Source of the DNA: Heptranchias perlo
Lineage: Eukaryota
Length of the DNA stretch: 64,000 bases
Assembly (NCBI RefSeq): GCF_035084215.1
Contig: NW_027138796.1
Span: 434,001-498,000, forward strand
Direction: 5' to 3'
Below, in pieces: positions 1 through 64,000 of this stretch. How positions within the stretch are numbered: position 1 is the first letter of the stretch; every line of letters begins with the position of its first letter. Below the pieces are notes generated by a model. The model had not been told where the DNA came from. It saw nothing but the letters and a program-made list of their open reading frames with translations, and did not search any database. Made by a program: the position numbers and the translations under genes.

Positions 1-3000
1 AACAAACTGGATCGAGCGCTTGGTTTTGATGGTGGCGATGGAGGCGTTGACATCCTTTGGCACGACATCTCCTCGGTACAGCATGCAGCACGCCATGTAC
101 TTGCCCTGGCGGGGGTCGCACTTCACCATCTGATTGGCTGGTTCAAAGCAGGCGTTGGTGATCTCTGACACAGATATTTGCTCGTGGTAAGCCTTCTCGG
201 CCGAAATAAGGGGGGAGTAGGTTAATAATGGGAAGTGAATGCGGGGATAAGGGACCAGGTTGGTTTGGAACTCAGTCAGGTCCACATTGAGGGCACCGTC
301 GAACCGTAGTGACGCCGTGATGGATGACACCAACTGTCCAATGAGACGGTTGAGGTTGGTGTACGTTGGACGCTCAATGTCAAGGTTACGCCGACATATA
401 TCATAAAGGGCCTCGTTGTCGACCATGAAGCCACAGTCAGAGTGCTCGAGGGTGCAGTGGGTGACGAGCACGGAGTTGTACGGTTCGACCACCGCAGTGG
501 AAATCTGCGGCGCAGGGTAAATGGAAAACTCCAGTTTGGATTTCTTGCCGTAGTCGACAGATAGTCTCTCCATCAGGAGGGATGTAAAACCCGAGCCGGT
601 CCCACCCCCGAAACTGTGGAAAATGAGGAAACCCTGGAGTCCCGTGCACTGGTCAGCCTGTGGGCAAAGAAGGTACAAAACATTAAAAGGGAGCAGGAAA
701 TGGAATCTATCGTCAAAGGACAGTGAACACAGGACAGGAGCAAAGATACTGACCGTCCCTGGTGGGACAGGGCAGTGGGAGCTGGGGAGATGGGGAGAAG
801 GGAGATGGGGAGAAGGGACAGTGGGAGATGGGGAGAAGGGGCAGTGGGAGATGGGGAGAAGGGACAGTGGGAGATGGGGAGAAGGGGCAGTGGGAGATGG
901 GGAGAAGTGGCAGTGGGAGATGGGGAGAAGTGGCAGTGGGAGATGGGGAGAAGGGGCAGTGGGAGATGGGGAGAAGTGGCAGTGGGAGATGGGGAGAAGG
1001 GGCAGTGGGAGCTGGGGAGAAGGGGCAGTGGGAGATGGGGAGAAGGGGCAGTGGGAGATGTGGAGAAGTGGCAGTGGGAGATGGGGAGAAGTGGCAGTGG
1101 GAGATGGTGAGAAGGGGCAGTGGGAGATGTGGAGAAGTGGCAGTGGGAGATAGGGAGAAGTGGCAGTGGGAGATGGGGAGAAGGGGCAGTGGGAGATAGG
1201 GAGAAGTGGCAGTGGGAGATGGGGAGAAGGGGCAGTGGGAGATGGGGAGAAGGGGCAGTGGGAGATGGTGAGAAGGGGCAGTGGGAGATGGGGAGAAGTG
1301 GCAGTGGGAGATGGGGAGAAGGGGCAGTGGGAGATAGGGAGAAGTGGCAGTGGGAGATGGGGAGAAGGGGCCGTGGGAGATAGGGAGAAGTGGCAGTGGG
1401 AGATGGGGAGAAGGGGCAGTGGGAGATAGGGAGAAGTGGCAGTGGGAGATGGGGAGAAGTGGCAGTGGGAGATGGGGAGAAGGGGCAGTGGGAGATAGGG
1501 AGAAGGGGCAGTGGGAGATAGGGAGAAGTGGCAGTGGGAGATGGGGAGAAGGGGCAGTGGGAGATAGGGAGAAGTGGCAGTGGGAGATGGGGAGAAGGGG
1601 CAGTGGGAGATGGTGAGAAGGGGCAGTGGGAGCTGGGGAGAAGGGGCAGTGGGAGATAGGGAGAAGGGACAGTGGAAGATGGGGAGAAGGGGCATTGGGA
1701 GATGGTGAGAAGTGGCAGTGGGAGATGGTGAGAAGGGGCAGTGGGAGATGGTGAGAAGGGGCAGTGGGAGATAGGGAGAAGGGACAGTGGGAGATGGGGA
1801 GAAGGGGCAGTGGGAGATGGTGAGAAGGGGCAGTGGGAGATGGGGAGAAGTGGCAGTGGGAGATGGTGAGAAGGGGCAGTGGGAGATGGTGAGAAGGGGC
1901 AGTGGGAGATAGGGAGAAGGGACAGTGGGAGATGGGGAGAAGGGGCAGTGGGAGATGGTGAGAAGAGAGTGGGAGATGGGGAGAAGGGGCAGTGGGAGAT
2001 GGGGAGATGGGAGAGTGGGAGATTGGGAGAAGGAGCAGTGGGAGATGGTGAGAAGGGGCATTGGGAGATGGTGAGAAGGGGCAGTGGGAGATGGTGGGAA
2101 GCGACAGTGGGAGATGGTGGAATGAGGCAGTGGGAGACTGTGGGACGTGGCAGTTGGAGATGGTGAGAAGAGAGTGGGAGAATGTGAGACCCGGGGCAGT
2201 GGGAGATGGTGGGATAGGGCAGTGGGAGATGATGGGACGGGGCATTGCGGGAGTAGATGGGACGGGGCATTGGGGGAGTTGATTGGACGGGGTAGTGGGA
2301 GATTGTCAAATGGGGCAGTGGGTAATGGTGAGATGGGGCAGTGGGAGATGATGGGATGTGGCATTGGGGGAGTTGATGGGACGGGGCAGTGGGAGATGAT
2401 GGGACGATGCAGTGGGAGATGATGGGATGGGGCATTGGGGGAGTTAATGGGATGGGGCAGTAGGAGTTGATGGGACGGGGCAGTGGGAGATGATGGGACG
2501 GGGCATTGGGGGAGTTGATGGGATGGGGCAGTGGGAGATGATGGGACGGGGCAGTGGGAGATGTTGGGACGGGGCAGTGGGATCAGGCAGCGGGAGCCAG
2601 TTCACAACTTACCACCTTCCGTATTCGATCCAAGACCAGATCCACTATCTCCTTGCCGATGGAACAGTGGCCCCGTGCATAATTATTGGCCGCATCCTCC
2701 TTGCCGGTGATGAGTTGCTCGGGGTGAAAGAGCTGTCGGTAGGTGCCGGTGCGGACCTCATCTGGGGGCAGGGAACGGAGAGTTAAAAGCCTGAACTCAA
2801 AACGTTCCAGGCACTTTGATTCAAGTCTGGCCATTTTTCTGGGAACATCTCTCAGTCCTGGGACCACCACCTTTGATCCAGACTGGAAATCCCTGACTGT
2901 CCACAGTGACTGGAGTATTGGAGATTGGGAGGAGAGGGGGAGAGACGATTGGCCAAGCAGCTTCAACTGTCGAGATCTCATGACCAACCCAGCAGCTGGA

Positions 3001-5359
3001 AGCAGCAAACCAGGAGGATGCCAGGAGCATGAAGGCCGTGTTCTGCTGTCTCAGTTGGTAGCTGGTGCGACAAATTGATCAGAGGAGTCGCAGGTTCCAT
3101 TTGTGGCCTGTGCTGGGTCAGCTGATCTCAGCTAAGGTGGATATGAGCCCTGATATTAACCTCAGGACCCTGGGTGGGGGGTGGGACAGTAAACAATCCA
3201 CCTGGGTACCTGCTGCTGTTCCTTACCCAATAACTGCACCTGGCAAATGAGTGTATGTGGGGGATGGGGTTAAGGTGGGGACAGTACTGAGCTCACCTGT
3301 GATGGTGCCTGTGGTTGAATTGCTTGCAGGGACTCAATGTTTGGCCTAATACTTGAAAGAATTGGTGAAGCACCGGAGAGACACGTGGGCCAGTGAAACC
3401 AGATTCTGGTAACGGGAAACACTTTCGGGGGAGGAGGGGAGATACTTGGAGGGGCCAAGACTTGGTCTGTGAGAAGGGAGTTTGTATCAAACAGCAACAA
3501 GAGGTAGCAGAACAGTGCCTGTCTGTATCAGGAGGAAGGACTGTACATGAGTAGGTGTATTGCAATGAGTTTAGTGACACACGACTAACCCATCAACAAT
3601 CTCTCCCCTTACCGATCACAGTGGGCTCCAGATCTACAAACACGGCTCGGGGGATGTGCTTGCCCGCCCCCGTCTCACTGAAGAAGGTGTTGAAGGAGTC
3701 GTCCCCACCTCCGATGGTCTTGTCACTGGGCATCTGCCCATCTGGTTGGATCCCATGCTCCAGGCAATACAGCTCCCAGCAAGCATTGCCGACCTGCACG
3801 CCGGCCTGGCCAATGTGGATTGAAAGACACTCACGCTAAAGAGTGGAGAACACAGGATTATTTACACAGGTAGGAGGACAATGCTTTATACAGTCAGTGG
3901 AGGTGAAAGGGAGAAGGGTGTGTGGGCAGCAACACGTTCCATTACAGTAACCTGTGGATCCCGTCCATTCCCTGTAGATCTCACCTGCTGCCTGCTGGAT
4001 CCCTTCTGTCCCTGTGCAACGTTCCACTACCTGTCGACCCCACCCCCTTCCGATGGACCCCTCTGCTCACGATGGATGTCTTCTCTCCGTGTACGTTCCC
4101 ACTCCCTGTGGACTCCCTCTCTTCCTCTGGATCCCCCATTTTCTGTGGTTTCCCACACCCTGTGTATTGCAGTGCTTCCTGTACATTCCCACTCCCTGTG
4201 GACTACCCTGTCCCAGAGGATTTGCCCACTGACTGTGGATCCATTGCTCAATGTGGGCCACTCGCTTCCTGAGGAATTCCCCATATTTCTTAAAGTTCCC
4301 ACATTCTGTCATTGACCACCCTCGTTTGCTGTGGATATGCATCACCCTGTGGATTCCCAATCTCCCTGTTACTCCTCTCTCCAGATGAATTTCCCACTTT
4401 CTCCCTGTGGCTGCCCCGAATCTCCCTGTGGATGCCCCCAGTCTCCCTGTGGTTCACTCCTCACTCTCTTTTCTGAAGCCCCTCCTCTCAACATCGATTA
4501 CTGCTCTCCCTGTCGTTCTTCCTCTCTCCATGTGGATCCTTCTCTCCCTGTGGATTCCCACCCTCCCTGTGGGTCCTTTCCCTCTCCCTTGGGATGCATT
4601 ACTCTGACTGGTTCCCTTCTCTCTCCCGACAGATTCCCACTCTCCTAGTGCATCACACTCTCTCAGTGGATCCCACTCTCTCTGGATCCCTTCTCTCCCT
4701 GTCAGATTCCCACTCTCCCAGTGGATCCCCCTCTCCCAGTAGTTCCCTCTCTCCCAGTGGATCTCTCTCTTCCTATGGTTCCCACTCTCCCTGTGAATCC
4801 CTCTCTCCCAGTGGACCCCTCTCTTTCTATGGGTCCCACTCTCCCTGTGAATCCCTCTCCCAGTGGATCCCTCTCCCCTAGTGGATCCCTCTCTTCCTAT
4901 GGATCCCACTCTCCCTGTGGATCCCACTCTCCCAGCAGATCCTTCTCTCCCTGTGCATTCCTTTCACCCAGTAGATCCCACTCTCCCTGTGAATCCCTCT
5001 CTCCCAGCAGATCCCTCTCTCCTCGTGCACCCCTCTCTTTCTATGGATCCCACTCTCCGTGTGAATCCCTCTCTCCTATTGGATCCCTCTCTTCCTATGG
5101 ATCCCACTCTCCCTGTGGATCCCTTCTCTCTCCCAGTCGATCCCACTCTCCCTGTGAATACCACTCTCCCAGTAGATCCCACTCTCCCTGTGGATCCACT
5201 CTCCCAGTAGATCCCTCTCTCCCTGTGAATCCCTCTCTCCCAGTGGATCCCACTCTCCCTGTGAATCCCTCTCTCCCAGTGGATCCCCCTCTCCCTGTGG
5301 ATCCCTCTGTCTCGGTGGAACACCCTCGCTCTGTGCATTGCCCAGTGAGCTCTCACCAT
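1..5359 (-). CDS. TUBA: Alpha-tubulin copy A (type 1); 3' end lies outside the window
   Basis: Exons: ATG 5357-5359, 3613-3835 (223 nt), 2613-2761 (149 nt), <1-657. GT-AG introns. Encodes [12 protein letters not shown]40, NNYARG and GGGTGSG. Exact isotype not assignable. Confidence 0.95.
770..2582. repeat. 23-bp purine-rich minisatellite in intron 3 of A
   Basis: Tandem GGGAGATGGGGAGAAG(G/T)GGCAGT, degenerating rightwards. Confidence 0.95.
3040..3260 (+). mobile_element. Possible decayed tRNA-derived SINE in intron 2 (also in B, C, D)
   Basis: A-box-like CTCAGTTGGTAG (about 3050-3061) and B-box-like GGTTCCATT (about 3093-3101); family not identified. Confidence 0.3.
4530..5310. repeat. 18-bp minisatellite in intron 1 of A
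   Basis: GTGGATCCC(A/T)CTCTCCC(T/A) units. Shorter versions at about 17060-17270, 31090-31400 and 45160-45470. Confidence 0.85.
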
Positions 5360-63685: not shown

Positions 63686-64000
63686 CTGGGGGCAGGGAAC
63701 GGAGAGTTAAAAGCCTGAACTCAAAACGTTTCAGGCACTTTGATTCAAGTCTGGCCATTTTTCTGGGAACATCTCTCAGTCCTGGGACCACCACCTTTGA
63801 TCCAGACTGGAAATCCCTGACTGTCCACAGTGACTGGAGTATTGGAGATTGGGAGGTGAGGGGGAGAGACGATTGGCCAAGCAGCTTCAACTGTCGAGAT
63901 CTCATGACCAACCCAGCAGCTGGAAGCAGCAAACCAGGAGGATGCCAGGAGCATGAAGGCCGTGTTCTGCTGTCTCAGTTGGTAGCTGGTGCGACAAATT

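Follow-up and report, generated by a model that had tools for sequence, protein, structure and literature searches.

A tandem array of a divergent, tyrosine-less alpha-tubulin gene in satellite DNA of the shark Heptranchias perlo

Mammalian TUBA3 and TUBA8 have a five-exon layout, with an extra intron after codon 352, and TUBA4A is a single-copy gene that encodes a tyrosine-less alpha-tubulin for a specialised cell type and retains the canonical contact surface for tubulin tyrosine ligase (TTL). Parker and Detrich reportedly described in 1998 an alpha-tubulin cluster of Notothenia coriiceps, with a few canonical-type genes, an inversion and recent duplication, and are said to have proposed a dosage benefit. 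In the main text of PMC4202323, vertebrate alpha-tubulin tandem clusters such as human TUBA1A/1B/1C hold 2-3 genes each, lineage-specific duplicates are described in frogs and sauropsids, tandem alpha/beta-tubulin arrays are cited from trypanosomes, and sharks have 0 mentions. Here we describe an alpha-tubulin array of the shark Heptranchias perlo, part of which occupies a stretch of 64,000 nt (the window; contig NW_027138796.1, positions 434,001 to 498,000) of an unplaced scaffold of 1,019,823 bp (C629; the window is C629:434001-498000). We consider it likely that the array is real, that unequal crossing-over generated it and that it has probably been retained because it raises the output of a specialised tubulin without the terminal tyrosine, and assign that reading a probability of roughly 0.6. 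The subfamily genes bear automatic names only (e.g., 'tubulin alpha chain-like'), and no publication on the subfamily or the array was found in the literature searched, most subscription journals lying outside its coverage.

The array, its repeat architecture and its divergence

In the window, a splice-anchor search located alpha-tubulin copies A to E, all five on the minus strand. Three of them (B, C and D) are complete, and their exons, of 3, 223, 149, 681 and 297 bp, encode 450 amino acids (Table 1). The number of copies, their common strand and the stop-to-stop distances (13,905, 14,051 and 21,293 bp) match the original prediction exactly; the 21-kb spacing is due to a full-length CR1 long interspersed element (LINE) and a 104-copy 29-mer variable number tandem repeat (VNTR). 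The array was also predicted to continue past both window edges, and it does, but it is finite: 11 copies lie head-to-tail on one strand over ~150 kb (C629, 373.7-523 kb), with 98-100% identity in exon 4. The 450-codon reading frame is open in every one of the 11, and the proximal promoter is the same in all of them and in the older copy d112 as well; introns 2-4 carry GT-AG in 10 of the 11. No assembly gap falls inside the array, the two gaps of the scaffold being elsewhere. An exon-4 search of the 3.25-Gb genome gave 32 matches (20 on C629, seven on C7, three on C49 and one each on C1281 and C1845), and near-identical further copies on other contigs were absent from these and from 21 intron-4 matches, both counts being lower bounds.

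Copies C and D encode an identical protein, and the 450-residue product of copy C ends in LDRKAEEEE. Copy B carries I42V and S385A, and the V171I/S193C variant is found in both A and E, the latter with exons 1-2 past the right window edge. AATAAA lies downstream of the stop codon in copies B-E. Intron 4 occurs in two types across the array, seven copies being 99-100% and four, including B, 87% identical to copy C.

The original prediction overlooked a higher-order repeat inside the satellite DNA: four genes form a ~60-kb block (periods 59.5 and 60.7 kb) that is repeated ~2.75 times. A CR1 fragment is present in intron 3 of eight copies and absent from three, A and E among them; a 4.4-kb upstream block is found in six units and a different (A-type) upstream block in three, once per 60-kb repeat and, in the window, between A and B; and two units have an added full-length CR1. 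Each unit also contains 18-, 23- and 29-bp minisatellites whose lengths vary between units. Two of the families that occur in the gene as minisatellites, in intron 3 and upstream of the promoter, also make up the satellites that flank the array, with ~150 kb of the 23-mer family on the left (C629 ~215-365 kb) and ~150 kb of the 29-mer family on the right (C629 ~524-677 kb), and repeats dominate most 10-kb bins across the 1.02-Mb scaffold.

Introns and dead LINEs had been predicted to be near-identical between units. This held for the truncated intron-3 CR1 (0-14 differences over 1.87 kb in seven aligned array copies) and for the 4.4-kb upstream block (1-19 differences among six units), but not for intron 4, with its two types, nor for A and E, which lack the intron-3 LINE; intron 4 and the A-type units are the exceptions to a unit identity of >99%. 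Moreover, the LINEs are not all dead. The full-length CR1 at 54193-59125 keeps open reading frames (ORFs) for ORF1 (317 amino acids, GDSL/SGNH) and ORF2 (980 amino acids, endonuclease and reverse transcriptase), and its doubled 265-bp unit may represent a tandem promoter monomer. The twin element, ~60 kb away, has a frameshift and a single 265-bp 5' unit, and the two differ by 8 substitutions over ~4.75 kb.

We compared six B-type units (~10.6 kb) after removal of tandem repeats. Pairwise differences ranged from 0.047% to 0.58%, all six units were distinct, and they contain 26-104 copies of the 29-mer. The closest pair, units 10 and 09, differs at 5 of 10,639 sites. Over 3,708 aligned columns, each of the 11 copies can be told from every other (4-120 differences per pair), private variants are present in five of six units aligned over a 750-bp block, and the A-type block exists in three versions with 9-18 differences. 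In the assembly, copies B, C and D represent separate loci rather than redundant reads of a single one, because they are 0.27-0.57% apart (B-C 0.45%, C-D 0.27%, B-D 0.57%), differ in VNTR length and, for B, have another intron 4. In a four-gamete test, 139 of 253 site-pattern pairs were incompatible, with a minimum number of exchange points (Rmin) of 14. The copies are therefore mosaics, the pattern that unequal crossing-over plus conversion would leave. For arrays of this kind, the standard mechanism is unequal crossing-over when units pair out of register. The recent tandem amplification with exchange that had been proposed is supported by these values and by a 15:6 ratio of synonymous to nonsynonymous variants.

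The encoded isotype and its relatives

An MREC start, K40, a GGGTGSG loop, catalytic E254 and K352 are hallmarks of alpha-tubulin, and copy C keeps all of them, its GTP-binding and catalytic residues being intact; exons 4-5 match PF00091 and PF03953, and the best PDB matches are alpha-tubulins. The predicted divergence was confirmed, with 78-87% identity to 11 canonical comparison proteins and 90-95% to 12 of 13 shark and skate relatives. All 11 array copies end in LDRKAEEEE, without a terminal Tyr or Phe, and the tail is short and has a net charge of -4 over its last 14 residues, basic residues included, compared with -5 to -9 in 11 canonical proteins. This form of tail, with no aromatic end, is clade-wide, as are Y108C, T190V, H309Q, E386L/M, A389T, H393L, L397K, M413L, S419Q and E420D.

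The alpha-tubulin residues that contact TTL are given in PMC3563685 as P175, E207, R308, H309, E386, R390, H393 and E433. Five of the eight named there are kept in the array protein and three are changed (H309Q, E386L, H393L), and the same three positions are changed in all 13 other shark and skate members. From these substitutions we predict that the array isotype would be a poor TTL substrate. The H11-H12 surface, which is altered in this protein, also binds motors and microtubule-associated proteins (MAPs).

Quick trees (one of 83 rows, with four short proteins left out, and one of 26 rows) placed the array proteins in a clade with shark and skate relatives, with Shimodaira-Hasegawa-like approximate likelihood ratio test (SH-aLRT) support of 99-100. 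Sharks and skates supply the closest named proteins, and the K397 signature was present in 39 of 224 fetched proteins, every source-named carrier being a shark or skate. Among the matches listed, the subfamily is seen only in sharks and rays, with the proviso that clusters at 90% identity might hide a less diverged chimaera or bony-fish orthologue. That such a subfamily exists and is multi-copy in other species had also been overlooked. In the cluster of skate protein P0092 (36 members), eight of the 15 members listed are on one 52.9-Mb skate sequence and others on a 17.4-Mb skate sequence and a 16.2-Mb horn shark sequence, these being counts rather than arrangements, and possibly including isoforms. 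Amplification has likely been repeated across shark and skate lineages. Six proteins from C629 formed one group in the 83-row tree (SH-aLRT 87) and were not grouped in the 26-row tree.

The intron after K352, from which a TUBA3/TUBA8-type layout had been predicted, is real: it is present at codon 352 in the array genes and in the canonical-type gene on C1845, and none of the 10 canonical genes on C7 and C49 has it. A relationship to TUBA3/TUBA8 was neither shown nor rejected by the trees, so that the link is this one intron alone, and 'TUBA3/TUBA8-type' is a description of layout, not of orthology. Grouping with a primate alpha-3-named protein gave a p value of 0.35 in the approximately unbiased (AU) test, and grouping with the C1845 protein 0.42, in a tree that contained no TUBA8; C7_7557001 was a weak alternative sister (support 75).

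Seven older full-length paralogues are present on C629, near 11, 35, 112, 680, 713, 756 and 892 kb, with exon 1 located for six of them. All seven were compared with the array, giving a synonymous divergence (dS) of 0.08-0.15 and a nonsynonymous to synonymous ratio (dN/dS) of 0.15-0.24.

Origin, upkeep and competing explanations

We suggest that misaligned units, aided by common VNTRs and LINEs, would have duplicated single genes first, that the four-gene block was probably duplicated next by misalignment between units, and that conversion with neighbours and older paralogues may have shuffled segments among them. The identical TATA/CCAAT promoters would then sum to more of one isotype. H309Q, E386L and H393L are predicted to weaken TTL binding, so that the isotype would stay detyrosinated, and detyrosinated microtubules could bind motors and MAPs differently in a single cell type with high demand, for which a germ cell, an oocyte and a nucleated blood cell are candidates. 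More speculatively, and with considerable doubt, this may be an elasmobranch isotype detyrosinated by genotype, its TTL docking surface lost, that several lineages have amplified independently into arrays within satellite DNA to serve a single cell type, with sperm, oocytes and the erythrocyte marginal band as possible examples.

Coding variants within the array comprise 15 synonymous and 6 nonsynonymous changes, with 77% of sites nonsynonymous (binomial p 4e-6), and those absent from the older paralogues 5 and 3 (p 0.02), with the reservation that variant sites are not independent in either test. The subfamily is transcribed and spliced, because a 1,902-bp contig from runs X5-X8 (four presumed-RNA runs of one sample, whose contigs drop variants) omits intron 4 at CT..AC and loose ends run from exon 4 into exon 3. 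Its variants match the paralogues at 11, 35 and 112 kb at 31 of 36 listed sites.

Several observations weigh against the view that the array is kept for its output. The spliced contig matches core array copies at only 0-4 of the 36 listed sites, and no core-copy transcripts were recognised among the variants listed for the X5-X8 contigs, which is not evidence of silence given that the contigs drop variants. The selection signal is partly inherited, because 10 of the 15 synonymous variants are also present in older paralogues, from which they may have come by conversion; two of the nonsynonymous changes occur only in the terminal array copy (C629:377 kb). In that copy, GG replaces GT at the intron-4 donor; the predicted intactness of exons, splice sites and promoters stands for the window (GT-AG in all copies, promoter elements in A-D), outside which this donor lies. 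A further subfamily copy, at C629 209-212 kb, is frameshifted. With one splice donor lost and one copy frameshifted, the cluster appears subject to birth and death, and no strict dosage demand is evident. The overlap of changed residues with TTL contacts exceeds chance by simple count (p 0.002-0.007), but this enrichment is post hoc and surface residues vary more anyway; positions 309 and 393 vary in canonical lamprey and invertebrate proteins too. The EEEE tail still supplies the two terminal acids that TTL needs, as given in PMC3563685. Finally, the copy number comes from one assembly only, and DNA runs X1-X4, which contain 0.90 of the sampled words, may be the source of that assembly itself.

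A real array could also be a passenger, a by-product of satellite-region turnover in which older paralogues make the protein while the 11 copies are either not expressed or not needed. The mostly repeat-dominated scaffold, the growth of gene minisatellites into ~150-kb blocks, the 54.7-kb satellite intron of one paralogue and the decay of one terminal copy would fit such a history, as would the recognition of transcripts from older paralogues only. We nevertheless regard it as unlikely: 10 of the 11 copies keep both frame and splice sites, the identical proximal promoter is kept in all 11, new variants lean towards synonymous changes (5 vs 3), and the subfamily is multi-copy in skates and the horn shark. 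We also asked how far the count could be inflated by the joining in tandem of two haplotypes of a shorter array, for a true haploid number nearer 4-7. An unplaced 1.02-Mb scaffold that has gaps at two other places and holds a 60-kb block repeated ~2.75 times leaves room for this. Matching parts of successive blocks differ at roughly allele-like levels, as seen in the CR1 insertion, and the very small difference between units 10 and 09 points the same way. However, B, C and D fall within one block and are distinct in sequence, VNTR length and, for B, intron 4; three versions of the A-type block are more than two haplotypes can yield; and the array is free of gaps, with private variants in most of its aligned units. 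Such partial false duplication is accordingly quite improbable.

Near-identical tandem copies in satellite, with satellite-swollen introns, also call to mind the ampliconic testis genes of mammalian X and Y chromosomes, which would be a strong form of the possible germline specificity raised in the original prediction. That the array is a sex-chromosome amplicon of this kind seems very improbable, as the scaffold also has ordinary conserved genes (a multi-exon ALAS, a CCDC115 exon) and the skate relatives are on several large sequences (17.7, 52.9 and 66 Mb). An array maintained for the dosage of a specialised isotype remains the explanation that we prefer.

Neighbouring features and comparison with described systems

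The features of the window are collected in Table 1. The broken retroelement upstream of copy A, which we take to be Penelope-like from its motifs, gave no match in a Pfam search.

Table 1. Positions of gene copies, promoters and repeats within the 64,000-nt window
Feature	Positions	Strand	Details
Copy A (array copy 07)	1..5359	-	ATG exon 1 5359-5357, exon 2 3835-3613, exon 3 2761-2613; intron 3 without LINE
Copy A exon 4	from 657, runs off left window edge	-	
Copy B (array copy 06)	10605..17321	-	exons 17321-17319, 16357-16135, 15283-15135, 12103-11423, 10901-10605
Copy C (array copy 05)	24510..31452	-	exons 31452-31450, 30290-30068, 29216-29068, 25968-25288, 24806-24510
Copy D (array copy 04)	38561..45525	-	exons 45525-45523, 44363-44141, 43289-43141, 40019-39339, 38857-38561
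Copy E (array copy 03)	59854..64000	-	exon 3 63685-63537, exon 4 61312-60632, exon 5 60150-59854
Proximal promoter of A	5417..5533	-	two CCAAT boxes, GC box, TATAAA
Proximal promoter of B	17379..17495	-	two CCAAT boxes, GC box, TATAAA
Proximal promoter of C	31510..31626	-	two CCAAT boxes, GC box, TATAAA
Proximal promoter of D	45583..45699	-	two CCAAT boxes, GC box, TATAAA
23-bp minisatellite, intron 3	770..2582, 14215-15115, 28077-29048, 42131-43121, 61425-63506		
29-bp minisatellite, upstream of promoter	5614..7794, 17576-18472, 31707-32463, 45780-48791		26 to 104 copies
18-bp minisatellite, intron 1	4523..5319, 16955-17281, 30978-31412, 45051-45485		
Truncated CR1-type LINE, intron 3	12327..14198, 26192-28063, 40243-42114	-	
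4.4-kb upstream block with broken CR1	19377..23770, 33368-37761, 49696-54101	+	
Full-length CR1 LINE	54193..59125	+	265-bp 5' unit doubled, 8-bp repeat tail; ends each 60-kb repeat
Broken retroelement, upstream block of A	8043..10139	+	

Elsewhere on the scaffold, a 1.6-kb LINE inverted repeat (93%; C629:364846-369158) separates the 23-mer satellite from the array end, and a stray piece of tubulin intron 4 (C629:384280-384653), probably a rearrangement junction, lies between copies 11 and 10. The 23-mer satellite (~C629:215000-364826) borders exon 4 of the frameshifted copy on its upstream side, and exons 2-3 of that copy were not found past this ~150-kb block. The 892-kb paralogue is otherwise full-length, with an intron 4 of 54.7 kb (C629:828324-883001) filled by AT-richer satellite. 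Two partial copies are also present, one adjoining a gap and the other near the scaffold start, where an inverted repeat (C629:1-15650; arms 96.6% identical) mirrors tubulin exons 2-3. The ALAS gene (minus strand) and CCDC115 exon (plus strand) lie within the tubulin cluster at C629 173.5-195.4 kb. A search of Rfam found no family, and there is a second ALAS gene on C20; one exon from each of the two scores alike against human ALAS2, which does not separate ALAS1 from ALAS2.

A faster-evolving subfamily member (C1281:80-103 kb; dN/dS ~0.35 vs the C629 copies) keeps K40, has much altered residues 35-44 and 278-311 and a 15.3-kb intron 4, and has long-branch relatives in several sharks and a sawfish. 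A second cluster, at C7:7.55-7.86 Mb, consists of seven alpha-tubulin genes of the four-exon type, whose orientations are mixed; one of their tails, ...DSSDLDRDEY, resembles that of the subfamily, and another has S as its last residue and no aromatic end.

What has been amplified here is no housekeeping tubulin but an isotype conserved in sharks and skates, with substitutions fixed at positions of the microtubule outer surface that are conserved in other respects. If the TTL prediction is true, this would constitute a natural experiment on the tyrosination cycle; if detyrosination is set by genotype, a state of the tubulin code would be fixed in the genome and dosed by gene number. With gene minisatellites that expand to ~150-kb blocks and a 55-kb intron, the locus also offers a model for the co-expansion of satellites and gene arrays in shark genomes.

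Like TUBA4A, the shark isotype has no encoded terminal tyrosine; unlike TUBA4A, it alters H309, E386 and H393 and has basic tail residues. Mammalian TUBA3 and TUBA8 end in an aromatic residue, which the shark isotype does not, and the alpha-3-named protein P0025 ends in GEEY and has a canonical helix H11. Compared with the cluster reported for Notothenia coriiceps, the shark array has many more copies, all on the same strand, encodes a divergent isotype and is set within satellite. The array resembles the trypanosome arrays cited in PMC4202323 in being head-to-tail, homogenised and interpreted as a dosage device, and differs from them in being alpha only, with introns, a promoter per copy and a divergent minor isotype. 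With the vertebrate clusters described in the main text of that survey it has in common class-specific tandem duplicates, branch-specific ongoing duplication and isotypes distinguished by the C-terminal tail. However, an 11-copy array in a cluster of ~20 is far beyond the 2-3-gene clusters of the survey, and here the copies are near-identical, are organised in a higher-order repeat and are accompanied on the scaffold by seven more full-length paralogues. The mechanism is familiar; the extent that it reaches in a vertebrate, the higher-order organisation of the repeat and the isotype itself are new.

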